Assembly: GCF_025643275.1 (NCBI RefSeq)
Contig: NZ_CP089977.1
Location: 1,110,001 to 1,142,000, forward strand
From: Moraxella nasicaprae
GTDB taxonomy: Bacteria; Pseudomonadota; Gammaproteobacteria; Pseudomonadales; Moraxellaceae
Length of the DNA: 32,000 nucleotides
Direction of reading: 5' to 3'
Below the pieces are notes generated by a model. That model was not told where the DNA came from. It searched no databases and worked only from the letters and a program-made list of their open reading frames with translations. The stretch's first letter is position 1. Every line of letters begins with the position of its first letter. The position numbers and the translations under genes are program-made. Positions 2,872-17,553 of this stretch are shown piece after piece.

Positions 2872-3726
2872 ATGCAAGTCTTTAACACCATCGCCCAATT
2901 ACAAGCACAATTAAAAGCATACCGTGATAACACCATTGCTCCCAAAGTTGCCCTAGTCCCCACGATGGGCAATCTGCACGAAGGGCATTTGACCTTAGTC
3001 AATATCGCCAAACAGCACGCTGACATCGTGGTGGTGAGTATCTTTGTCAATCCCACCCAGTTTGGGGCAGGCGAGGATTTTGATAGCTATCCACGCACCC
3101 TAGATGAGGATTGTCAAAAACTACAAACGGTGGGGGCGGATATGGTCTTTGCCCCAAGCGTTGATGAAATGTACCCCACTTATCCGCCAAATATCCAAGT
3201 ATTAAGCGGTGAGATTACCAAGATTTTGTGTGGCAAAAGTCGTCCTACGCATTTTGATGGCGTGGGGCTGGTGGTGTCTAAGCTCTTTAATATCGTGCGT
3301 CCTGATGTGGCTGTTTTTGGCAAAAAAGATTATCAGCAATTAGCCATCATCAGACAGCTTAATGACGAATTAAATTTTGGCATACAAATTATCGGAGCGG
3401 ATATCGTGCGAGCCGATGATGGGCTTGCCTTATCATCTCGCAACCAGTATCTGACGGATGATGAGAGACGATTGGCACCGATGTTAAACCAAACGCTTAA
3501 CCAGCTGGCAAAGCATATTCGCCAAGCACCATTCATGGACTATCATGCATTGGTGGCACAAGCACGAGAGCATCTGAACGCCAATGGATTTGTGGTGGAT
3601 TATCTAGAATTATATAATGACAAGCTGCAAACCGTCAGTCAGTCGGATACAAAGTTGGTGGTTTTGTTGGCGGCGTGGCTTGGTAAAGCCAGATTGTTGG
3701 ATAATCTACAAATTAACCTAAATTAG
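2872..3726 (+). CDS. panC: pantoate--beta-alanine ligase (pantothenate synthetase)
   Basis: It has PTMGNLHEGHLTL (HxGH nucleotidyltransferase motif) and FGKKDYQQ. It lies directly downstream of panB. Confidence 0.9.
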   Translation: MQVFNTIAQLQAQLKAYRDNTIAPKVALVPTMGNLHEGHLTLVNIAKQHADIVVVSIFVNPTQFGAGEDFDSYPRTLDEDCQKLQTVGADMVFAPSVDEMYPTYPPNIQVLSGEITKILCGKSRPTHFDGVGLVVSKLFNIVRPDVAVFGKKDYQQLAIIRQLNDELNFGIQIIGADIVRADDGLALSSRNQYLTDDERRLAPMLNQTLNQLAKHIRQAPFMDYHALVAQAREHLNANGFVVDYLELYNDKLQTVSQSDTKLVVLLAAWLGKARLLDNLQINLN

Positions 3727-4674: not shown

Positions 4675-5181
4675 ATGATGATTGATTGGTCAAAACAAGA
4701 CATGCGAGTATCTCGCACCGAAATCAAAAAAGCCCATGAACGCCTGCAAGCATTGGCGACACCGCTTGCCAATTTATCCAAAAAACAACAAAAAAATCTG
4801 CCTGTCAGCGAGTATTTTTTGGACGAATTAAGCCAGCTTGCCAGTATCACCAGTGCCGCTGCTAAAAATCGCCAAATCAAGCGAGTGGGCAAACTCATCA
4901 TCGAGGAAGACCACCACAGTTTGACACAGGCATTGTTTGAATGCAAATTTACCAAAGAACAAATCGCCAAGATTGAGACTTGGTATGCACGCCTCAAATT
5001 AAGCGATGAAAGCACCATTAAGCAATTTGTTAAGCAGTTTAATGCCAGTGAGTTTAACAGCATTTATCAACTGTTGTTGTGGATAGAGTACGCCCGTCAC
5101 TTAGGCGATGATGAACTGCTGACCGAAAGCGTGGCGGATTTTGAAAGCTATGTCAAGGAAGTGGCGATTTTATCTACTTGA
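4675..5181 (+). CDS. yjgA: DUF615 ribosome-associated protein (YjgA/DarP family)
   Basis: VSRTEIKKAHERLQALATPLANL and NRQIKRVGKLI align by eye with E. coli YjgA (VSKSEIKRDAEELKRLG, RRRQLQLIGKML). The start could be 4675 or 4678. Confidence 0.7.
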   Translation: MMIDWSKQDMRVSRTEIKKAHERLQALATPLANLSKKQQKNLPVSEYFLDELSQLASITSAAAKNRQIKRVGKLIIEEDHHSLTQALFECKFTKEQIAKIETWYARLKLSDESTIKQFVKQFNASEFNSIYQLLLWIEYARHLGDDELLTESVADFESYVKEVAILST

Positions 5182-5254
5182 TTTGCCGATGTATCAATCC
5201 ATTTGATAATGATAATCAATAAAATATATTGTATTTTTCTGATATACAGTGCTA

Positions 5255-5400
5255 TGATGTAACAAAGCCACATGAAATTCGGGTTCATGTGGCTTTGTTA
5301 CTTTCCTAAGCGATGACCTTGCGGTCAAATCCATGCAATGCGTTCCATCAAAACAGCGGTCGTCCATGTTGGCATTTCCATTCGCCATTTCCTTGCTGTG
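5255..5400 (-). ncRNA. Candidate Csr/Rsm-family (CsrA-sequestering) small RNA, about 145 nt
   Basis: On the minus strand there are six GGA motifs between 5392 and 5304. They appear as TCC on the given strand at 5390-92, 5377-79, 5363-65, 5344-46, 5330-32 and 5304-06. Five are in A-N-GGA context. One sits in the loop of the small hairpin GGCG-AAUGGAAA-UGCC. The 3-prime end is a perfect 16-bp hairpin (5299-5261) ending in UUUGUU. An extended -10 and a GacA-like box lie upstream. The ends are predicted, not mapped. Confidence 0.5.
5261..5299. terminator. Perfect 16-bp hairpin, usable as an intrinsic terminator on either strand
   Basis: The hairpin is AACAAAGCCACATGAA (5261-5276), a 7-nt loop, then TTCATGTGGCTTTGTT (5284-5299). 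The GC-rich core is followed by TTTGTT on both strands. It could terminate yjgA (+) and the candidate sRNA (-). Confidence 0.65.
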
Positions 5401-5405
5401 TGCGT

Positions 5406-5473
5406 ATTATCACACAATAGCAGGTTGTGGTATAGTGGTAGAAATCATCTTTTGTTGTAAGATATTTCGTACA
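5406..5473 (-). promoter_or_regulatory. Predicted sRNA promoter: extended -10 plus a GacA/UvrY-type upstream palindrome
   Basis: The minus strand reads TGTGATAAT at 5414-5406 (TGn plus GATAAT). The -35 is weak (TATACC, 5434-5429). The palindrome TGTAAG-ATATTT-CGTACA at 5456-5473 matches the Pseudomonas GacA box TGTAAG-N6-CTTACA at 11 of 12 specified positions. Its centre is about 65 nt upstream of the predicted start near 5399. Confidence 0.45.
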
Positions 5474-5500
5474 AGCATCACACCATCATTGATGGGTCAT

Positions 5501-5533
5501 AAAAAAACATCGCCCATGCGAGCGATGTTTTTT
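5501..5533. terminator. Bidirectional intrinsic terminator downstream of dsbA
   Basis: An A7 run is followed by stem ACATCGC (5507-5513) and GCGATGT (5522-5528), then a T-run to 5533. It lies 14 nt past the dsbA stop codon. Confidence 0.75.
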
Positions 5534-5546
5534 GGCAAAAAGTGAC

Positions 5547-6173
5547 TTATTTTTTCTCTTCACGCACTTTATTGATAAGAAAATCAACTACTTGTGGCAC
5601 TTTGGCATCTTCGCCTGTTACCACATATTTGCCATGCACCACCACCGCAGGCACGCCCGTCAGTTGATAACGCTGAGCTCCTGCTTTGGAGCGTTCGATT
5701 TTGGTGGTGACAGGGAATGAGTTGTATAGACTGTTGAATTTGGTCTTATCCACGCCTTGTGAGGCATACCAATTAGCAAGCTCTTCTTGTGAGCCGATGA
5801 TGTTTCTCTTGCCATCTTTGTGTACGGCATCAAACAGTAGCTGATGCGTTTTTTCTTGTACGCCAAGTTGCTGAGCGGCATAAAAACCACGAGCACTCAC
5901 CTCCCACATAGGGTTTAGAGCGGCTGGCGTTTGGAAAAATGCCACATCTTTGGCACGAGTTTTTGCCCATTTTTGCATGTGTGGTTCTAGGGCGTAGCAA
6001 TGTGGGCAACCATACCAAAAAAACTCACGCACCACGATAACATCGCCTGCGATATTTTCAGGGTTTGGTAAAACTTGGTAATCTTTATTCGCTTCAAACT
6101 CGGCAGCTTGGACAAGTGTCGCCAAGCCAAGCACGGTCGCCATGACGGAAGTTTTTAGTAAAAATTTCATCAT
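5547..6173 (-). CDS. dsbA: periplasmic thiol:disulfide interchange protein DsbA
   Basis: The signal peptide reads MMKFLLKTSVMATVLGLATLVQA. The thioredoxin active site is WYGCPHCY. I place the start at ATG 6173 because an AAGGAAA Shine-Dalgarno lies just upstream. The track start 6233 adds a non-signal extension. Confidence 0.85.
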   Translation of the reverse strand: MMKFLLKTSVMATVLGLATLVQAAEFEANKDYQVLPNPENIAGDVIVVREFFWYGCPHCYALEPHMQKWAKTRAKDVAFFQTPAALNPMWEVSARGFYAAQQLGVQEKTHQLLFDAVHKDGKRNIIGSQEELANWYASQGVDKTKFNSLYNSFPVTTKIERSKAGAQRYQLTGVPAVVVHGKYVVTGEDAKVPQVVDFLINKVREEKK

Positions 6174-6483
6174 TGTTTCCTTAAATCCAACGGTTGTTTG
6201 GAAATGATGGCAATACCGCCCGATGGGAGACAATTGCCAAAAAAATTGGTCGGGTATAGTTTAGCGTATTTTTGGGCAAATGTGGCAATTGTTTTCTTAA
6301 TAATTCGTTGCAGTTTGTGTAAATTTTATGTTTTTTGGGCAAATTTACCTAAATAACAGGCAGAAGTGACATCTTTGTTGCTGGTTTGGCCGTCAAGCAT
6401 TGGCAAGAATGTAGTCAATGGGCTTGAAAAATGGTAAGATAGTCATTTTATGAATCATTTTAGCGTCTGAACAAGGATACGCC

Positions 6484-7230
6484 ATGCAGCACATCAATAC
6501 GCCTGCCAATGCTGATTTTGATGAAATCGGTAAATTCACCAAACTTGCCAACGAATGGTGGGATAGAAATGGTGCGTTTAAATCTTTGCACGACATTAAT
6601 CCATTACGCCTTAACTGGATTGAAGATAGGGTCAATGAGCATTACGGCTCGCCATTGGTGGGCAAATCGGTGGTGGATATTGGCTGTGGTGGCGGTATTT
6701 TGTCGCATTCGATGGCGGTGCGTGGTGCTGGTGTGCTGGGTGTGGATTTGGGCGATGAAAATCTGCAAGCGGCTGGTATCCATGCTGCCAAGACAGGAAT
6801 GAGCGATAAAGTATCGTTTCGTTGTGTGGCGGTTGAGGAGCTTGCCAAAGAACAGCCTGCCAGCTTTGATGTGGTCACTTGCATGGAGATGCTTGAACAT
6901 GTGCCAGACCCATCAGCCATCATACAGGCGTGTTTTGACCTACTAAAACCAGGTGGTGCGTGCGTGATGAGTACCATCAATCGCAATCCAAAATCGTATC
7001 TGTTTGCCATTGTGGGGGCGGAGTATGTGCTACGATTGTTGGATAAAGGCACGCACGATTGGCATAAATTCATCACACCAGCTGAGCTTGACCAGATGGC
7101 AATCCGAGCAGGATTTGAGCGATTTGATATGACAGGACTGCATTATAATCCCATCACCAAGCATTTTTGGTTATCAAACAGCAATGTCGATGTCAATTAT
7201 ATGATGGCATTTACCAAGCCTGCTGCATAA
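6484..7230 (+). CDS. ubiG: bifunctional ubiquinone biosynthesis O-methyltransferase
   Basis: It has FDEIGKFTKLANEWWD, LHDINPLRL, and the SAM motif VVDIGCGGGILS. Length and N-terminus are typical of UbiG. Confidence 0.85.
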   Translation: MQHINTPANADFDEIGKFTKLANEWWDRNGAFKSLHDINPLRLNWIEDRVNEHYGSPLVGKSVVDIGCGGGILSHSMAVRGAGVLGVDLGDENLQAAGIHAAKTGMSDKVSFRCVAVEELAKEQPASFDVVTCMEMLEHVPDPSAIIQACFDLLKPGGACVMSTINRNPKSYLFAIVGAEYVLRLLDKGTHDWHKFITPAELDQMAIRAGFERFDMTGLHYNPITKHFWLSNSNVDVNYMMAFTKPAA

Positions 7231-8715: not shown

Positions 8716-10046
8716 CGATTGGTGTTCCTGTGAGCTTATTTCAACACTTGTTAATCATTTTGGCATTGATTTTGACATCGAGTTTTTTTTCCATTTCAGA
8801 AATTGCTCTGGCTGGGGCTCGCAAAATCAAGCTCAAACTTTTGGCAGAATCTGGCGATGAACGAGCCGACAAAGTGCTGCAATTACAAGAAAACTCTGCT
8901 GATTTTTTTGCCACTTCGCAAATCGGTCTAAATGCCGTTGCCATCTTGGGTGGTTCGGTGGGCGAAAGTGCGTTGCGTCCTTATTTTGCCGAGTGGATTG
9001 GTGTGTTTTATTCAGGGCAGTATTTGGACAGCATCGCATTTTTTGCGTCTTTTATCGTGGTGACTTTGCTGTTTATTTTGTATGCAGATTTGATTCCCAA
9101 ACGCATTGCGATGATTAACCCTGAAAAAGTGGCCTTGGCGGTCATCAATCCGATACTGTGGACAATCATGTTGGTTAAGCCACTGGCTTGGGTCATCAAT
9201 GCCATCGCCAATCTCACTTTTCGCATCTTTAAAATCAACACCACCCGAGATGATAACATTACTTTTGATGATATTTCTGCCATTGTGGACGCAGGGGCGG
9301 AAGCTGGCGTGGTGTTACAACAAGAACAACATTTCATCGAAAATGTCTTTGAACTAGAAGAGCGTACCGTACCATCATCGATGACGGTGCGTGATGATGT
9401 GGTGTATTTTACGCTGGGCGAGTCAGAGGAGTCGATTCGCCAAAAGATTGCTGACTATCCGTATTCGAAGTTTTTGGTGTGTAACGAAACCATTGACCAA
9501 GTCATTGGCTATGTCGATACCAAAGATATTTTGGTGCGAATCATGAATCAGCAGTCGTTTTTTCAGCTTAATGAGTCCACCATTCGTAATGTGCTGATTA
9601 TTCCTGACACGCTGACTTTGTCAGAGCTTTTGGATAAGTTTCGTGCCAGTAACGAAAAACTGGCGGTGGTCATCAATGAATACGCCTTAGTGGTGGGTGT
9701 GATTACGCTATCAGACATCATGATGACTGTGATGGGCGATTGGGCATCTGCTGAACCTGAGGACCAACAAATCATTCGCCGTGATGAAAATTCTTGGTTC
9801 ATTGACGGCTTAACCCCGATTGATGATGTTAAGCACGCACTGGATATTGATGAATTTGCCGACTGGGAGCATTATGAGACTTTGGCGGGTTTTATCATGT
9901 ATCGACTGCGTAAAATTCCTCGCTTGGCAGACTTTGTGGAGCATGAGGGTTATAAATTTGAGGTGGTGGACATCGACCATTATAAGATTGACCAATTATT
10001 AGTGACTCGCTTACCACCAAAAATTGAAGAAAAAACCGATGATTAA
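8697..10046 (+). CDS. CNNM/TlyC-family membrane protein (DUF21 membrane domain, CBS pair, CorC/HlyC C-terminal domain)
   Basis: The N-terminal hydrophobic DUF21-like region contains SISEIALAGARKIKL. The central CBS-pair region and C-terminal transporter-associated domain fit by length and pattern. The start is uncertain: TTG 8697 overlaps yciK, and GTG 8730 is an alternative. Confidence 0.75.
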   Translation: MSAQTITIGVPVSLFQHLLIILALILTSSFFSISEIALAGARKIKLKLLAESGDERADKVLQLQENSADFFATSQIGLNAVAILGGSVGESALRPYFAEWIGVFYSGQYLDSIAFFASFIVVTLLFILYADLIPKRIAMINPEKVALAVINPILWTIMLVKPLAWVINAIANLTFRIFKINTTRDDNITFDDISAIVDAGAEAGVVLQQEQHFIENVFELEERTVPSSMTVRDDVVYFTLGESEESIRQKIADYPYSKFLVCNETIDQVIGYVDTKDILVRIMNQQSFFQLNESTIRNVLIIPDTLTLSELLDKFRASNEKLAVVINEYALVVGVITLSDIMMTVMGDWASAEPEDQQIIRRDENSWFIDGLTPIDDVKHALDIDEFADWEHYETLAGFIMYRLRKIPRLADFVEHEGYKFEVVDIDHYKIDQLLVTRLPPKIEEKTDD

Positions 10047-10080
10047 GCGTGCCAGCTTTTTGTCAAATCAAGCATGCCCA

Positions 10081-10107
10081 AAAGCCCCCATCAATCAGGG
10101 GGCTTTT
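10081..10107. terminator. Bidirectional intrinsic terminator between convergent genes
   Basis: The stem is AAAGCCCCC (10081-10089) and GGGGGCTTT (10098-10106) with an 8-nt loop. T-runs follow on both strands. The stop codon of the COG0523 gene lies in the loop. Confidence 0.75.
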
Positions 10108-11102
10108 GTTTGGCATAATGCCATCAGTTCATCGTCCCATTGCTGCCAAATGACGTCGTTTTGATGTGTTGATAAAATCAATTCTAGTTTGCTGGCATCT
10201 TGGGGGCTGGCATCGCTGATGTTGATGCTTTCTGGGGTGATGTTCAAAGAAACCCAGCCGTCATCGGTGTGAATGACCGCCTTGATGCGTAAATAGTCTG
10301 GTAGATTGAGCAGCCATTTTTGTAGCGGATAGCTGATAAATTGCCAATCAGCAGGCAACAGCCACCCACCCACTTGATATTCGCCCAAAATATCGTGATA
10401 GCGATAGGGAGGCGTGACATCATCTGCTGTATCGATGGGATTGGAGACTGGATTGAGCGGTGCCAGGCTGACCTTATGCACAGTATGATGAGTCTGTCGT
10501 GGCATGCTGAGCATCTTGGTATAATCTTGATGGGAAAGTTGTTTTTGGTCAAAGAGCATCGCTTTTGGGTTGATGTTTGCTACCCATTGATATAATAGCG
10601 ATGTATCATCTGTCGTGCCGTGATAGACGATGATGTCAGCATGTTTGATGTGGGCAATGTAACCTTCGTGCGTGCGGTACTTTTCTTGTTGCCATTGGGC
10701 AAGATTTAGTACGCAAATGATGGCATTGATGCTAAGGCTATTTTGCCAATGCGACTGACTTAGCTGACTGCTTAGCTCATCAGGGTGTGATAATCCTGTT
10801 GGCTCAATGATGAGCTGGCTGGGTCTGTGGTCGGATAATAAACGCACCAAAGCAACCTGCAAGGGGAGCTGGCTGGTGCAACAGATACAACCACCGCTGA
10901 CTTCCTTGATGGCAAGGTTATTGCCATCAATCAGACTGCCATCAATGCCGATTTTGCCAAATTCATTGATGAGTAATGCCCAAGTGTCATCAGGATTTTT
11001 TTGGGCGATGAGTTGATTGATGAAAGTGGTTTTGCCTGCTCCCAAAAATCCAATCACCAAAGTGGTGGGCGTGGCAATGATGGGCGATGGTGTGTACTGC
11101 AT
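10095..11102 (-). CDS. COG0523 (CobW/YeiR/ZigA-like) G3E-family P-loop GTPase, putative metallochaperone
   Basis: The Walker A is GFLGAGKTT and the CxCC metal motif is GGCICCT. It has the two-domain length typical of the family. I place the start at ATG 11102 because the longer track ORF (11132) runs through the ompR terminator hairpin. Confidence 0.75.
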   Translation of the reverse strand: MQYTPSPIIATPTTLVIGFLGAGKTTFINQLIAQKNPDDTWALLINEFGKIGIDGSLIDGNNLAIKEVSGGCICCTSQLPLQVALVRLLSDHRPSQLIIEPTGLSHPDELSSQLSQSHWQNSLSINAIICVLNLAQWQQEKYRTHEGYIAHIKHADIIVYHGTTDDTSLLYQWVANINPKAMLFDQKQLSHQDYTKMLSMPRQTHHTVHKVSLAPLNPVSNPIDTADDVTPPYRYHDILGEYQVGGWLLPADWQFISYPLQKWLLNLPDYLRIKAVIHTDDGWVSLNITPESINISDASPQDASKLELILSTHQNDVIWQQWDDELMALCQTKAP

Positions 11103-12095: not shown

Positions 12096-14426
12096 ATGAC
12101 CCAAAATGTAGAAACTTTGCCGTCCATTGACCAAGATGCCATCTATGCACAACTTGCCAGCGAGCATCACATCAGACCCGCCCAAGTGTCGGCATTTGCC
12201 CAGTTGTTCGATGAGGGGGCAAGTGTGCCGTTCATCGCTCGTTATCGCAAGGAAGTGACAGGCGGTCTGGACGATGAGACATTGCGTCAGCTTGAAAAAT
12301 CATTGGTGTCCGCACGAGAGCTGGCGACTCGCCGCCTAAAAATCATTGAGCTATTAAAGGCTCAAAACGCCTTGACCGATGAGCTACAAAATCGGGTCAA
12401 TCAAGCCATGAGTAAATTGGAGCTTGAAGAGATTTATCAGCCGTATCGCCCTCGTCGCCGTTCGGTTGCCGCCAAAGCGACTTTGGCTGGATTGGGCGTG
12501 CCTGCCAAACAGATTTTGTCAGGGGTAGCACCAAGCGTGGCGTTGGCGGATTTTGTTGCACCTCAGACTTTGACCGATGAGTCGGGCGAAACCTTTGAGG
12601 CAGATTTTGGCGACTTTGATAAGCAGTTGGCTGGCGTACAGGCGATTATCCTAGATGAATGGGCAACGGCACTGGACTTGCTTGATGTGGTGCGTACAGG
12701 CTTTAATAAGACTGCCAGCATTCGTTCAGAGCTGATTGGCGAAGAAAAGCGAGAAGTTGGCGAGAAGTTCAAAGATTATTTTGAGCATAGTGAGCCATTT
12801 GCCAAATTATCCAATCATCGTCTGCTTGCCATGCTCAGAGGTCGCCAGCAAAATGTACTGGTGCTGCATGTCGATGGCGAAGATGAGCCATTTATTGAGC
12901 AGATTGTGCGTCATTTTGGCGTGGATAGTCGTGCTGATAATGGGGCATTTTTGGCAGACTGTGCCAAAAAACTTTGGACAACCAAATGGCGTACACAGAT
13001 TGAACATCGTCTTTTGACCGAAAGACGCATCACGGCAGAGACGGACGCCATTGCTGTGTTTGCGGAAAATCTAAAACATTTATTGATGGTTGCACCAGCG
13101 GGGCGTAAGGTCATTTTGGGTGTCGACCCTGGCTACAAAAATGGCGTCAAAATGGCCATCATTGACAGCACAGGCGATGTACTGGCAACCCAAACCGTTT
13201 ATCCTTTTGCCAGCAGCCAAGAGAATGCCGAAAAAGCCAAGCTCATCATCGCCAAGATGATTCAGGATTATCAGGTTGAGCTGGTTGCCATCGGTAATGG
13301 TACTGCCAGCCGAGAAAGTGAAATTTTTATCAAGGACATCATCAAGCAGCATCAACTATCCGCCACAGCACTGGTTATCAGTGAGGCAGGAGCGTCGGTG
13401 TATTCTGCCAGCGAGCTTGCCTCTGCCGAGCTTGGCGAACTTGATGTGTCGCTGCGTGGTGCGGTTTCTATTGCCAGACGATTGCAAGACCCATTGTCTG
13501 AGCTGGTCAAGGTTGAGCCAAAAGCCATTGGCGTGGGTCAATATCAGCACGATGTGAATCAGGCAGAGCTTGAAGCAAGTCTTGATAAAGTGACCGAAGA
13601 TTGCGTCAATGCGGTGGGTGTCGATGTCAATACCGCCAGCCCTGCGATTTTGGCTCATATTTCTGGCTTGAACAAAAATGTCGCCCAACAAATCGTGGAA
13701 TATCGCCGTGCTAATGGTGCATTCAAAAACCGTGAAGAGCTGAAAAAAGTACCAAGACTTGGCGTGAAGACCTTTGAGCAATCGGCAGGTTTTTTGCGTA
13801 TCAAAGATGGTAATGAACCGCTTGATGCCACTGGTGTACACCCTGAAAGCTATGGCTTGGTTTATGAGATTTTGACCAAGCATGACAAGACCTTGGGCGA
13901 AGTTTTGGGCAATGAAACGCTTGCTAAGTCACTTAACGATAGCAACAATGATTTTAGCCAATTATCGGTCGTGTTGTCTGAGCTTGCCAAGCCAGCACAC
14001 GACCCACGAGGCGAGTTTAAGACAGCAACTTTCCGTGACGATGTCAATGACATCAAGGATTTGCAGATTGGCATGGTGCTAGAAGGTGTGGTGACGAATG
14101 TAACCGCCTTTGGCTGTTTTGTGGACATTGGGGTGCATCAAGATGGCTTGGTGCATATTTCAGAGTTGTCCGATGATTTTGTGGACAATCCTGCCAGCGT
14201 GGTCAAACCACAGGATATTGTCAAGGTGCGAGTGATTGTCGTTGATGAGGCTCGCCGCCGCATTGGGCTTAGTATGAAATCGGATAAACCAAAGGCAAAT
14301 CCAGAAAAAACCGACCGCAAAGCCAAGCCAAAAGCCAAACCAAGCCATAAGCCAAAAACAGAGCAACCAAAGGCGATGGGTAGTTTTGGTGCGTTATTGC
14401 ATACGGCATTAAATCAATCGTCCTAA
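12096..14426 (+). CDS. tex: transcription accessory protein Tex (S1 RNA-binding domain protein)
   Basis: The N-terminal Tex motif is VPFIARYRKE. A YqgF-like region reads LGVDPGYKNGVK. A helix-hairpin-helix region is present. The C-terminal S1 domain reads GMVLEGVVTNVTAFGCFVDIGVHQDGLVHISEL. A Lys/Pro-rich tail follows. Confidence 0.9.
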   Translation: MTQNVETLPSIDQDAIYAQLASEHHIRPAQVSAFAQLFDEGASVPFIARYRKEVTGGLDDETLRQLEKSLVSARELATRRLKIIELLKAQNALTDELQNRVNQAMSKLELEEIYQPYRPRRRSVAAKATLAGLGVPAKQILSGVAPSVALADFVAPQTLTDESGETFEADFGDFDKQLAGVQAIILDEWATALDLLDVVRTGFNKTASIRSELIGEEKREVGEKFKDYFEHSEPFAKLSNHRLLAMLRGRQQNVLVLHVDGEDEPFIEQIVRHFGVDSRADNGAFLADCAKKLWTTKWRTQIEHRLLTERRITAETDAIAVFAENLKHLLMVAPAGRKVILGVDPGYKNGVKMAIIDSTGDVLATQTVYPFASSQENAEKAKLIIAKMIQDYQVELVAIGNGTASRESEIFIKDIIKQHQLSATALVISEAGASVYSASELASAELGELDVSLRGAVSIARRLQDPLSELVKVEPKAIGVGQYQHDVNQAELEASLDKVTEDCVNAVGVDVNTASPAILAHISGLNKNVAQQIVEYRRANGAFKNREELKKVPRLGVKTFEQSAGFLRIKDGNEPLDATGVHPESYGLVYEILTKHDKTLGEVLGNETLAKSLNDSNNDFSQLSVVLSELAKPAHDPRGEFKTATFRDDVNDIKDLQIGMVLEGVVTNVTAFGCFVDIGVHQDGLVHISELSDDFVDNPASVVKPQDIVKVRVIVVDEARRRIGLSMKSDKPKANPEKTDRKAKPKAKPSHKPKTEQPKAMGSFGALLHTALNQSS

Positions 14427-14677
14427 AACAAGGCTGGCAAGTAGGAGGTTGTGCCTATTTGCCAGCCAATATCTTAGTGCATCATTTTTTATTTGTGTCT
14501 TGTTGATTGCTATTTGGTAAATTTTTGTAACTTTTACAAAAGAATTTTCCCTGTTTAGTTATTTTTTCTGTATTATGGTTTGAAGGTGGATTATATAGTC
14601 TGAAAGTCATGTTCTTAGCATGACCAAAAAGTATCGCCTATATTTGGTATTTAGCTTTTTTGACAAAAGGATTTTTT

Positions 14678-15478
14678 ATGAAACGCACTTTACTTGTTTT
14701 GGGTCTGACCACTGCTGCAATGAGCCTAACTGCCTGTGGCGGTGGCGGTCATCATTCCGTAGATAATGCGGCCACGCCTGTTGTGAATAATTCAGCCAAC
14801 AACACCAACACGAACAATACCAATGCCAACAATGGTGCTAGCAATACTGCCAGTAATACTACCAACACCGCCAAAACGGGCATTCAAGGTAATATCATCG
14901 CCATCAAAAATCATAAAGCAGGCAATAATACTGCCATCAGTGCCACCAAAAACATTGAGAGCATTGTGATTAACGGTCAGGCTATTGATTTTATCCCAGC
15001 AGGATTTTCGGTGGGTAGCATCGATTTGCGTGCCAACAACATGGTGCGTGTTGGTTCGGGTAATAACGGCAGAAACTTAATTCACTCTTATTACGGCTAT
15101 CTAAAAGAAGGTACTAATGGCACGCCTCATCTGTTCTCACAAGGTAATGTGACCACCACAATGCCTCAATCAGGCAAAGCAAATTACACAGGTAATGCAG
15201 TCAATGTCAGCACCAGTGCCGATGGCAAAAGCCACGCCATCAGCACTTCGACCGCCAATTTTAGTGTCGATTTTGGTGCCAAAACCTTAACAGGTCAAAT
15301 CAACAGTGCCAACAAAGTTGAACTGGCTGGCACGATTAAGAACAATGGTTTTTCTGGCACCAAAAATGGCATTACGACCAATGGTTATTTTTATGGCAAT
15401 AACGCTGCCGAGCTTGGCGGTACTTATAAAAATGCTAACGGCACCATCAGTGGTGCGTATGGAGCAAAAAAACAATAA
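14678..15478 (+). CDS. surface-lipoprotein candidate with a TbpB/fHbp-like C-terminal beta-barrel domain and an Asn-rich linker
   Basis: The lipobox LTAC is followed by GGGG. The Asn/Thr-rich low-complexity stretch is NNSANNTNTNNTNANNGASNTASNTTNT. The C-terminal pattern is GKANYTGNA ... ANFSVDFGAKTLTG ... NGYFYGNNAAELGGTY ... GAYGAKKQ. That pattern is typical of the TbpB-like lipoprotein beta-barrel domain. I place the start at ATG 14678, with AAAGGA upstream. Confidence 0.7.
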   Translation: MKRTLLVLGLTTAAMSLTACGGGGHHSVDNAATPVVNNSANNTNTNNTNANNGASNTASNTTNTAKTGIQGNIIAIKNHKAGNNTAISATKNIESIVINGQAIDFIPAGFSVGSIDLRANNMVRVGSGNNGRNLIHSYYGYLKEGTNGTPHLFSQGNVTTTMPQSGKANYTGNAVNVSTSADGKSHAISTSTANFSVDFGAKTLTGQINSANKVELAGTIKNNGFSGTKNGITTNGYFYGNNAAELGGTYKNANGTISGAYGAKKQ

Positions 15479-15714: not shown

Positions 15715-17553
15715 TTATTCTACCGTAACCGATTTGGCAAGATTTCGTGGTTTGTCCACATCGGTGCCACGCACCAACGCCACATGGTAAGATAGTAGCT
15801 GAACACCAATGGTATGTACGATTGGCGATAAGATACCCACATGACGAGGTGTGCGAATCACATGAATACCATCAGCAGCATGAAAATCGCTGTCCAAGTC
15901 TGATAGTACGAACAATTCTCCACCACGAGCCGAGACTTCTTGCATATTGGCTTTGACCTTGTCTAGCAGACCGTCATTAGGCGAGATGACCACGATGGGC
16001 ATATTTTCATCGACCAACGCCAAAGGACCGTGTTTTAGTTCGCCAGCAGGATAAGCCTCTGCATGAATGTAGGTCAGTTCTTTGAGTTTTAAAGCACCTT
16101 CTAAGGCAATCGGATAATGAATGCCACGACCCAAGAACAGCGTGCTTGGTTTGCCAGCAAATTTTTGTGCCCAAGCAGACAGTTGTGGTTCTAGGTTGAG
16201 AGCGTGTTGGATATGACCAGGCAGTTGACGTAAATCATCTTTGTAGCTTTCTGCTTTGGCATCATCAACATGACCACGCACCAGACCCAAAGTCACCGCC
16301 AAGCCGAACAAGATGACCAGCTGGGTGGTGAATGCTTTGGTTGAGGCGACACCAATCTCTGCTCCTGCACGAGTGTAGATGGCAAGCGTGCTGTTGCGAG
16401 GTAGGGCAGATTCCATCACATTACAGATGGATAAGCTGTATTGATGACCTTGTGCGATGGCGTATTTTAGGGCTTCCATCGTGTCTAGGGTTTCGCCTGA
16501 TTGGCTGATGGTAATGATAAGCTCGTTAGGGTCTGCGATGACATCACGATAGCGATATTCGCTGGCAATCTCGACATCACAGCGGATTTTGGCGATGGAT
16601 TCTAACCAGTATTTGCCTGTCAAGGCAGCATAGTAGGAAGTGCCACAGGCTAGGATTTTGATGCTATTGATGGTGCTAAAAATATCACTTGCTTGGCTGC
16701 CAAAATTCTCTGGCACAAAACCACCGTCCAAGAAAATCTCTGCTGTGTCTGAGACGGCTCGTGGTTGTTCGTAGATTTCTTTTTGCATGAAGTGGCTATA
16801 AGGACCTAGTTCAAGTGATGCCAAAGACAGCTCAGAAGTTTTGACCAAACGATTGGCTTGATTGCCATCTTTGTCAAGCAGTTGTTCGATGCCGTTGGCA
16901 CTTAGCAAGGCAACATCGCCATCTTCTAGATAAGAAACTTTGCGAGTAAAAGCGATGACGGCTGAAACATCAGAGGCGATGAACACTTCTTCGTCACCAA
17001 ATGCAACCAACAAAGGACAGCCCATGCGAGCCACGACCATTTGGTTTGGCTTATCATTGGCAATCACGGCGATGGCGTATGCACCATGAAAACGAGAACA
17101 GGCAGTCTGTACCGCACGATACAAATCGCCATTGTTATTAACATATTCGTGATGGACGCTGTGAGCGATGACTTCGGTATCGGTTTGTGATTCAAATTCA
17201 TAACCCAAAGCTTCTAGACGACGGCGTTCTGCTTCGAAGTTTTCGATGATGCCGTTATGCACCACAGAGATGAGTCCTGCCGAGATGTGTGGGTGGGCGT
17301 TTGGCTCGGTAACACCACCGTGTGTCGCCCAGCGAGTATGACCAATGCCAGTCAGACCATAGATTTGCTTGTTTTTGGCAGCTTCTTCCATCAAGGCAAC
17401 ACGCCCGACACGACGCACACGACGAATGCCTTCATCTGTCTGCACAGCGATGCCTGATGAGTCATAGCCACGATATTCTAGGCGTTTTAGACCATCTGTC
17501 AAAAAATCAACCACATTGTGATGAGTACGAATTGCACCAACGATACCGCACAT
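15715..17553 (-). CDS. glmS: glutamine--fructose-6-phosphate aminotransferase (isomerizing)
   Basis: The N-terminus MCGIVGA carries the catalytic Cys after Met. The two SIS-domain pattern is present. The C-terminus ends [12 protein letters not shown] and the length is 612 aa. Confidence 0.95.

Follow-up and report, generated by a model that had tools for sequence, protein, structure and literature searches.

A conserved, multi-copy small RNA gene of Moraxella, located between yjgA and dsbA and predicted to sequester CsrA

Introduction

What does the gap between the convergent genes yjgA and dsbA of Moraxella nasicaprae encode? In gamma-proteobacteria the cascade that runs from Gac/BarA through small RNAs (sRNAs) to CsrA serves as the master switch of virulence, biofilm and metabolism. 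An original prediction, made from the letters of the DNA, placed in this gap an sRNA of the Csr/Rsm type that would act as a sponge for CsrA. We analysed the 32,000 nucleotides around it (positions 1,110,001 to 1,142,000 of contig NZ_CP089977.1, forward strand), a stretch that we refer to as the window and whose first letter is position 1. The gap holds a conserved, structured minus-strand unit that does not code for protein, comes with a promoter architecture and a terminator of its own, and belongs to a multi-copy Moraxella family. The GGA motifs of this unit are conserved, carry an A at position -2 and are placed either in single-stranded joints or in the loop of a hairpin. We are highly confident that an independent sRNA gene exists at 5399-5259. 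That the unit is a GacA-activated, CsrA-sequestering sRNA gene we consider likely, judging from sequence features and from analogy with characterised systems.

Results

A self-contained minus-strand unit lies between yjgA and dsbA

The gap spans 365 nt (5182-5546), as first described: yjgA ends at 5181 and the dsbA stop codon occupies 5547-5549. The whole unit is found on the minus strand and is self-contained, extending from 5473 to 5259. Its parts, in the order in which they would be read by RNA polymerase, are as follows.

5456-5473, no strand assigned: GacA/UvrY-type palindrome, TGTACG-AAATAT-CTTACA in minus-strand reading (TGTACGAAATATCTTACA), with 1 mismatch to TGTAAG-N6-CTTACA
5434-5455, minus: promoter block between the box and the -10, with nearly invariant G35, T39, G42, C43 and T47 in alignment A4 and no indels
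5406-5414, minus: extended -10 TGTGATAAT (TGn + GATAAT), read from the sequence, with no recognisable -35
5259-5399, minus: predicted sRNA of about 141 nt; start inferred at A5399, 7 nt past the -10; end after the terminator U-tract
5353-5399, minus: 5' domain, in which helix P1 closes a loop with GGA1, hairpin P2 and GGA3
5399-5395 with 5357-5353, minus: helix P1, ACAGC with GCUGU, 94% paired over 20 distinct sequences
5390-5392, minus: GGA1 (CAAGGAA), single-stranded between P1 and P2; G11 of AAGG(G)A is invariant in the family alignment
5370-5387, minus: hairpin P2, UGGCG-AAUGGAAA-UGCCA (5387-5383 with 5374-5370), with GGA2 in the loop
5377-5379, minus: GGA2 (AAUGGAA), in the P2 loop, unpaired probability 0.81
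5361-5368, minus: GGA3 in CAUGGACG (GGA = 5365-5363), an exact RsmA motif CANGGAYG (PMC11837529)
5344-5346, minus: GGA4 (GAUGGAA), in the variable linker
5330-5332, minus: GGA5 (CAUGGAU), in the variable linker
5314-5327, minus: hairpin P3 (UGACC-GCAA-GGUCA), without GGA, in the minimum-energy and centroid folds
5304-5306, minus: GGA6 (UUAGGAAA), single-stranded just 5' of the terminator, unpaired probability 0.87
5259-5301, no strand assigned: terminator hairpin of 18 bp, with AACAAA and UUUGUU flanks

The palindrome was compared with the box consensus TGTAAG-N6-CTTACA, taken from PMC3171408 and PMC11837529. TGTACGAAATATCTTACA is the sole match with at most 2 mismatches in the window. As shuffled sequence gives about 1.0 such match per 32 kb, the box by itself is no proof. 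Its centre lies 65.5 nt upstream of the predicted start A5399, and it is the best-conserved upstream block, at a spacing without indels, in 8 orthologs and 9 other family members. Likewise, T-G-n-nATAnT is invariant throughout the family. A sigma-70 scan in which both hexamers were required called no minus-strand promoter and found no -35. The block at 5434-5455 (A4 columns 26-47) has a family consensus of about CATTGAYGAYATTTGCCACT, of which the window copy is the most degenerate. It is not a -35, because the spacers to the -10 would be 24-33 bp, which is too long; a second regulator or a DNA-bending protein could bind there.

Downstream of this promoter, six GGA motifs start at 5392, 5379, 5365, 5346, 5332 and 5306, all within 89 nt, and five of the six read A-N-GGA. 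Against a window background of 0.63-0.72 GGA per 100 nt, the sRNA body stands out as the sole stretch in the 32 kb, on both strands, with at least 5 GGA per 100 nt and the sole stretch on either strand with at least 3 A-N-GGA. Five A-N-GGA are rarely reached in shuffles of the RNA body (P = 0.0005-0.0009). GGA6 is the only motif of this copy without A at -2, and GGA or GGGA stands at its position in all orthologs; GGA3 is invariant in 20 of 20 aligned family members. The terminator was missed by a terminator scan because its U-tract lies partly within the stem. Being symmetric, it is bidirectional and probably also stops yjgA transcription.

These features bear out the anatomy given in the original prediction: the palindrome one mismatch from the GacA consensus at 5456-5473, its centre about 65 nt upstream of the start, an extended -10 at 5414-5406 (TGTGATAAT) with a weak -35 (none was called by the scan), and six GGA within 89 nt, five of them A-N-GGA, whose starts and contexts agree with ours. 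The perfect 16-bp terminator that it described at 5299-5261 is present and extends to 18 pairs (5301-5259), and its length estimate of about 145 nt compares with about 141 nt here.

The unit is conserved 3' of yjgA in other Moraxella species

A YjgA scan with one genome per species gave 22 Moraxella loci, 21 of them informative; the closest YjgA, at 91% identity, is that of Moraxella sp. ZJ142. The unit lies 3' of yjgA in eight of these: sp. ZJ142, M. pluranimalium, M. porci, sp. Pampa, M. cuniculi, M. bovoculi and two metagenome-assembled genomes (MAGs), in one of which it is cut on the 5' side. On the strand opposite yjgA, the box of the orthologs departs from the consensus at 0-2 positions (0 in M. 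porci and M. bovoculi) and is followed by TGnGATAMT, a start of ACAGCAAGGA, 4-6 GGA and a terminator. In the ortholog promoter alignment the invariant blocks are the box and the extended -10, and the interval from box to start aligns without indels, save that M. bovoculi has 2 additional nt immediately ahead of the start. The linkers vary both in length and in sequence. RNA lengths range over 130-170 nt, and only part of the set is picked up by blastn. Kept motifs together with drifting linkers are the pattern expected if motifs, not sequence, are selected. Thus GGA motifs and palindrome are kept in relatives that retain the flanking genes, the outcome for which the original prediction had said to look.

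The linkage is to yjgA: at loci L004, L006 and L008 the unit adjoins yjgA and dsbA is not adjacent: L004 and L008 have it more than 2 kb off, and in the 3 kb flank of L006 it was not found.

A partial unit is seen in a Moraxella MAG, L010. At 3528-3654 (minus strand) the 3' two-thirds of the sRNA are kept, and the 5' end and promoter are replaced by unrelated coding-like sequence, owing either to a chimeric assembly or to a real disruption.

Related copies recur at other loci, each with its own promoter and terminator

Metagenome contigs were scanned with an exact pattern (box, N43-45, ATAMT, N7-9, CAGCAARG). The scan returned 25 matches in 24 contigs, and in 25 of 25 the pattern is followed by a GGA-rich body and a terminator. 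Housekeeping genes on the metagenome contigs share about 70% DNA identity with those of the window, and YigZ is closest to named Moraxella species. Locus settings were assigned with Pfam on the flanking open reading frames (ORFs) and tblastn with the flank proteins. Only two of the 24 contigs are yjgA-dsbA loci; the other five settings are 3' of yigZ/UPF0029, beside coaE, upstream of tex, between SBP_bac_5 and luciferase-like genes, and between lysR and gspN.

A covariance model built from the RNA 5' domain only, R1, scores the window copy (5402-5351) at 64.6 bits (E ~1e-14) and finds four copies missed by the promoter pattern, each with its own box, -10 and terminator. Together, pattern scan and covariance model give about 30 further copies in total at the five other locus kinds. 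Recurrence elsewhere, tandem copies included, with a box and a terminator of its own each time, upholds the status of the unit as an independent gene.

Several copies are clustered. L040 carries three in 2.8 kb (2844-2896, 3555-3604 and 5571-5623, all minus), L024 a tandem pair (2482-2538 and 2789-2846), and L030 two copies 3.8 kb apart (8852-8903 and 12659-12711). Each clustered copy has its own box, -10 and terminator. R1 finds no second copy in the window, where the region upstream of tex is empty, unlike in the organisms of L030 and L041. An R1 match at 16899-16967 (plus strand; 18.3 bits, E 0.056), antisense inside glmS, was judged to be noise, and blastn found no match to the sRNA on plasmids.

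The sRNA lies 3' of yigZ in L026, L040 and L024, and in the window dsbA is convergent with yjgA. Since dsbA faces either yigZ or yjgA and the sRNA is found 3' of either, the sRNA sits at a recurrent rearrangement junction.

In M. lacunata (L049, 2501-3772) and in another Moraxella genome (L053/L054, 4001-5272), dsbA-ubiG-gph is convergent with yigZ across a 57-nt gap and there is no sRNA; in an unspecified Moraxella genome the yigZ-dsbA gap, of 57 nt, is too short for a copy.

Two observations concern individual loci. GCAAGUAGCAA, which is free of GGA and shared by several sRNA classes from loci outside yjgA-dsbA, stands just 5' of the terminator in L024, L027, L028, L029 and the L040 copy at 2892, and is absent from the window copy. 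L029 also carries a TPP riboswitch at 5586-5678 (plus strand, 69.9 bits), followed by a 413-aa ORF (5764-7005, plus) without a Pfam match, and a gene of the SIR2 family (PF13289) at 9307-10848 (plus) whose closest named relatives are from Acinetobacter (57-59% identity).

Two helices covary, and the GGA motifs are mostly unpaired in predicted folds

We examined RNA structure on alignment A3, made with MAFFT from 20 distinct 5' domains. In P1 and P2 of A3, 84.5% of cells pair, as compared with 20-42% after a shift of the partners by 1-3 columns. Changes on both sides are seen at seven pairs (26 cells): in P2 they occur at 5 of 5 pairs across the family (GC to AU and CG to UA among them), and P1 shows AU/UA/GC/GU exchanges at two pairs. 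None of 500 shuffles of A3 matched the observed pairing or covariation score, and RNAalifold independently predicts both helices. A model-based alignment of 26 distinct sequences, structure-leaning by construction, is 85.8% paired.

For the isolated 5' domain the family fold is the minimum-energy structure (-9.9 kcal/mol); for the whole window RNA, whose fold z-score is -3.6, it lies 0.2 kcal/mol above the minimum-energy fold. GGA1, GGA3 and GGA6 are in joints of the family fold. In single-sequence folds of the window RNA and seven orthologs, the mean unpaired probability is about 0.7 for GGA as against 0.41 for all bases. A GGA-free hairpin of differing sequence occurs at the place of P3 in 7 of 8 same-locus sequences (not in L007), each in its own fold.

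Both structural expectations of the original prediction therefore hold: the GGA motifs fall for the most part in loops or unpaired stretches, and the hairpin GGCG-AAUGGAAA-UGCC that was to present one of them is present and supported by covariation.

Among 154 GGA motifs from 30 family members, 93% have A at -2, 44% have C at -3 and 67% have Y at +1; as the members are not all independent, these percentages are descriptive and not a test. A at -2 makes up the A-N-GGA core of CsrA/RsmA sites, and the context fits the motif CANGGAYG (PMC11837529), which CAUGGACG of GGA3 fits as well.

The unit shows the sequence features of CsrA-regulating sRNAs

Kulkarni et al. 2006 (PMC1488887) set out five sequence criteria for CsrA-regulating sRNAs, and the unit shows the feature named in each of the five. 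It is intergenic, in a 365-nt gap with no conserved ORF inside. It has 6 GGA, 5 of them A-N-GGA, in 89 nt (family members have 4-6, mean 5.1), and these lie in loops or single strands according to the unpaired probabilities and the covarying GGA2 hairpin. An 18-bp upstream site of the UvrY/GacA type is present and is kept at fixed spacing in synteny orthologs and covariance-model copies. Finally, an 18-bp hairpin with UUUGUU forms the terminator, and equivalent hairpins with U-tracts follow every family member. Together with conservation, GGA accessibility, recurrence at other loci and motif context, these features support the proposal that the RNA is a CsrA sponge.

Genes around the unit

The two flanking genes are the following.

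4675-5181, plus: yjgA (ribosome biogenesis factor YjgA), NCBIfam NF003593 at 100 bits against a cut-off of 70; convergent with the sRNA
5547-6173, minus: dsbA, matched by DsbA NCBIfam models below their equivalog cut-offs; on the same strand as the sRNA and upstream of it

Reading of the sequence places a terminator hairpin of dsbA's own at 5501-5534 (ACATCGC/GCGATGT + T7), before the GacA box. With its A6 and T7 flanks it likewise looks bidirectional, and it parts dsbA transcription from the sRNA promoter.

The genes of the window are pcnB, folK, panB, panC, rapZ, yjgA, dsbA, ubiG, gph/mupP, yciK, paeA, a CobW-like GTPase gene, ompR, tex, and those for a Slam-dependent lipoprotein, glmS and a nitrate ABC transporter. 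The ORF at 14660-15478 (plus), directly 3' of tex, matches the NCBIfam model for a Slam-dependent surface lipoprotein at 77.5 bits (cut-off 80).

Discussion

How the RNA would work

By analogy with characterised GacA/UvrY-box sRNAs (PMC1488887, PMC3171408, PMC11837529), a phosphorylated response regulator of the GacA/UvrY family would bind the palindrome near -65 and recruit RNA polymerase to an otherwise poor promoter that lacks a -35. The resulting RNA of about 141 nt would offer six sites of the A-N-GGA type, three of them in the closed 5' domain and one an exact CANGGAYG. Several CsrA dimers could bind these GGA sites, and CsrA would thereby be titrated off the GGA-containing leaders of its target mRNAs, relieving CsrA control. 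Titration capacity is probably enlarged by paralogs at other places in the genome, in the manner of Pseudomonas RsmX/Y/Z.

Relation to known Csr/Rsm RNAs

We found no description of a Csr/Rsm sRNA in Moraxella in the literature, which agrees with the original prediction's remark that none was annotated; for the neighbouring genera, predictions from 2006 exist for Acinetobacter and Psychrobacter, and A. baumannii RNAs are validated. Kulkarni et al. 2006 (PMC1488887) predicted rsmX/Y/Z in A. baylyi ADP1 and rsmY in Psychrobacter arcticus. For A. baumannii, CsrA is reported to be antagonised by CsrB/C/D (PMC13516227), and CsrB to be enriched in CsrA RNA immunoprecipitation (RIP; PMC13643297). In an Acinetobacter transcriptome study, 0 of 110 sRNAs were >75% identical in Moraxella or Pseudomonas. 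On the protein side, M. catarrhalis BBH18 has csrA, and its sensor kinase MCR_0156 is linked in STRING to the LuxR-family regulator MCR_1062, to csrA and to rlmD (PMC9409589); the BarA/GacS orthologs of Moraxellaceae form a clade of their own (PMC8639471).

With RsmX, RsmY and RsmZ of Pseudomonas the Moraxella RNAs share their size class (about 110-170 nt here), 4-6 GGA in hairpin loops and joints, a GacA box TGTAAG-N6-CTTACA upstream of a weak -35 promoter, a rho-independent terminator and the presence of several paralogs per genome. Unlike them, they have a family-specific 5' domain in which P1 (ACAGC/GCUGU) encloses GGA1, the GGA2 hairpin and GGA3. CsrB, CsrC and CsrD of Acinetobacter (Singh et al. 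2025, as cited in PMC13516227 and PMC13643297) and the ADP1 and P. arcticus predictions (PMC1488887) are like them in belonging to Moraxellaceae, in functional class and in the five sequence criteria. For the predicted genes an upstream site of the GacA type is reported; they differ from the Moraxella genes in their reported flanks (ACIAD0938/0939, ACIAD0480/gltP, ACIAD3594/3596 and Psyc_1521/1522). CsrB and CsrC of enterobacteria and Vibrio (RF00018, RF00084) resemble the Moraxella RNAs in the UvrY/VarA-dependent box, in GGA in loops, in CsrA sequestration, which here is a prediction, and in tandem or clustered paralogs, predicted for Photobacterium and Shewanella (PMC1488887, PMC3171408). 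They differ in size, with ~350-420 nt and 18-22 sites as against about 141 nt and six sites.

The RNA has the features of the class and matches no Rfam family, and we therefore place it in the functional class and in none of the curated families. It represents a well-known kind of RNA, to which it adds a new family or, at the least, a new member; the mechanism itself is known. A further reading, that the Moraxella RNAs form an independent, genus-specific family of Csr sponges not homologous to Pseudomonas RsmX/Y/Z or Acinetobacter CsrB/C/D, seems to us possible and rather doubtful. If it holds, the cassette of box, promoter, RNA and terminator may duplicate in tandem, relocate, and be gained and lost at rearrangement junctions.

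Evidence that weighs against a CsrA-sequestering RNA

Several results count against the assignment as a GacA-activated CsrA sponge. The five Rfam models named in the original prediction, CsrB RF00018, CsrC RF00084, RsmY RF00195, RsmZ/PrrB RF00166 and RsmX RF02144, gave no gathering-score match in the window and eight related loci, and in 5100-5650 no Csr/Rsm model matched even at E up to 10. Nor did any other Rfam family reach its gathering score for the sRNA in the window or those loci; the best match, RAGATH-6 (30.9 bits, cut-off 170), was rejected, since it covers the terminator hairpin only. The partner genes csrA, gacA and gacS are in neither the window nor any fetched locus: tblastn with E. 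coli CsrA found nothing in the window and all loci, and with P. aeruginosa GacA only a receiver-domain match in L036 and L046.

The gene is also absent at the yjgA locus in 13 of the 21 informative Moraxella species representatives, among them M. catarrhalis (137-nt gap), M. bovis, M. lacunata and M. nonliquefaciens. At the yigZ locus no copy was found, with searches run with filters off included, in Moraxella sp. Pampa, M. caviae, M. lacunata, M. marmotae, Psychrobacter sp. I-STPA10 and Faucicola mancuniensis. The unspecified Moraxella genome with the 57-nt yigZ-dsbA gap has none either. One further assembly has no copy beside yigZ, and as its contig ends 173 nt past yigZ it is uninformative.

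The number of GGA, when set against shuffles of the local composition, is only modestly raised (P 0.013-0.035; 6 observed, mean 2.4-3.1). The earlier estimate that about one GGA would be expected accordingly stands against the window background and does not stand against local composition. Finally, as the metagenome scan required the box, conservation of the box among the copies so selected is circular, whereas it is not circular for the synteny-derived orthologs and the covariance-model copies.

Other explanations

Could the RNA be a genuine GacA-box sRNA that does something other than bind CsrA, for example pair with mRNAs, with or without Hfq, or bind another RNA-binding protein? The link to CsrA comes from sequence features alone, no Rfam Csr/Rsm model matches, and the conserved, GGA-free GCAAGUAGCAA of some classes is a possible pairing seed. 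On the other hand, divergent copies keep the A-N-GGA display in loops and joints and do not keep any long single-stranded seed, and all GacA/UvrY-box sRNAs that we found described act by sequestering CsrA/RsmA (PMC1488887, PMC11837529, PMC3171408). We regard this alternative as improbable. Still less probable is a cis-acting or 3'-end-derived element, such as a long dsbA 3' untranslated region (UTR) or a bidirectional terminator region shared by yjgA and dsbA. The position between convergent genes, the symmetric terminator that could stop yjgA too, and dsbA directly upstream on the same strand would all suit it. However, the strong dsbA terminator at 5501-5534 precedes the box, the unit retains its own conserved promoter, linkage to yjgA persists at the three loci without adjacent dsbA (L004, L006 and L008), and copies stand beside the unrelated yigZ, coaE, tex, SBP/luciferase-like pair and lysR/gspN.

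The window does contain a 64-aa ORF (5388-5194) whose AUG follows AAGGA, with AAGGAA before the AUG, so that a small protein could be envisaged; yet this ORF reads through the terminator, the longest ATG ORFs of 7 orthologs span 13-41 aa in differing frames and encode unrelated peptides, the AUG of L004 reaches a stop after 4 codons, and ortholog indels are not multiples of three. We rejected the small-protein explanation, which has next to no probability: no ORF is conserved, and the 64-aa ORF has no counterpart in any ortholog. Equally negligible is the possibility that the motifs came together by chance in an AT-rich spacer where nothing is functional. A box match with at most 2 mismatches is indeed expected about once per 32 kb, and the GGA count differs from local composition with a P of only ~0.01-0.03, but box, -10, GGA motifs and terminator are kept in 8 species, related copies number more than 30, and the helices carry compensatory base changes. 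Chance is refuted by these comparative data, and a GacA-activated, CsrA-sequestering sRNA remains the reading that we prefer.

Implications for Moraxella

Moraxella is a genus with human and livestock pathogens for which we found no description of the RNA component of the Gac/BarA-CsrA cascade. The analysis supplies a concrete gene, a covariance model from 26 distinct sequences and a promoter signature, with which the sRNAs can be annotated genome-wide, and the family lends itself directly to a new Rfam entry. These are of use for annotation and for Moraxella biology, and will be no surprise to specialists. The box predicts the direct regulon of a GacA-type regulator, and deletion or overexpression of the sRNA would be a route to manipulating CsrA activity in Moraxella. 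If the family should prove to be independent and genus-specific, host-adapted species would differ in their capacity to titrate CsrA under the Gac pathway.

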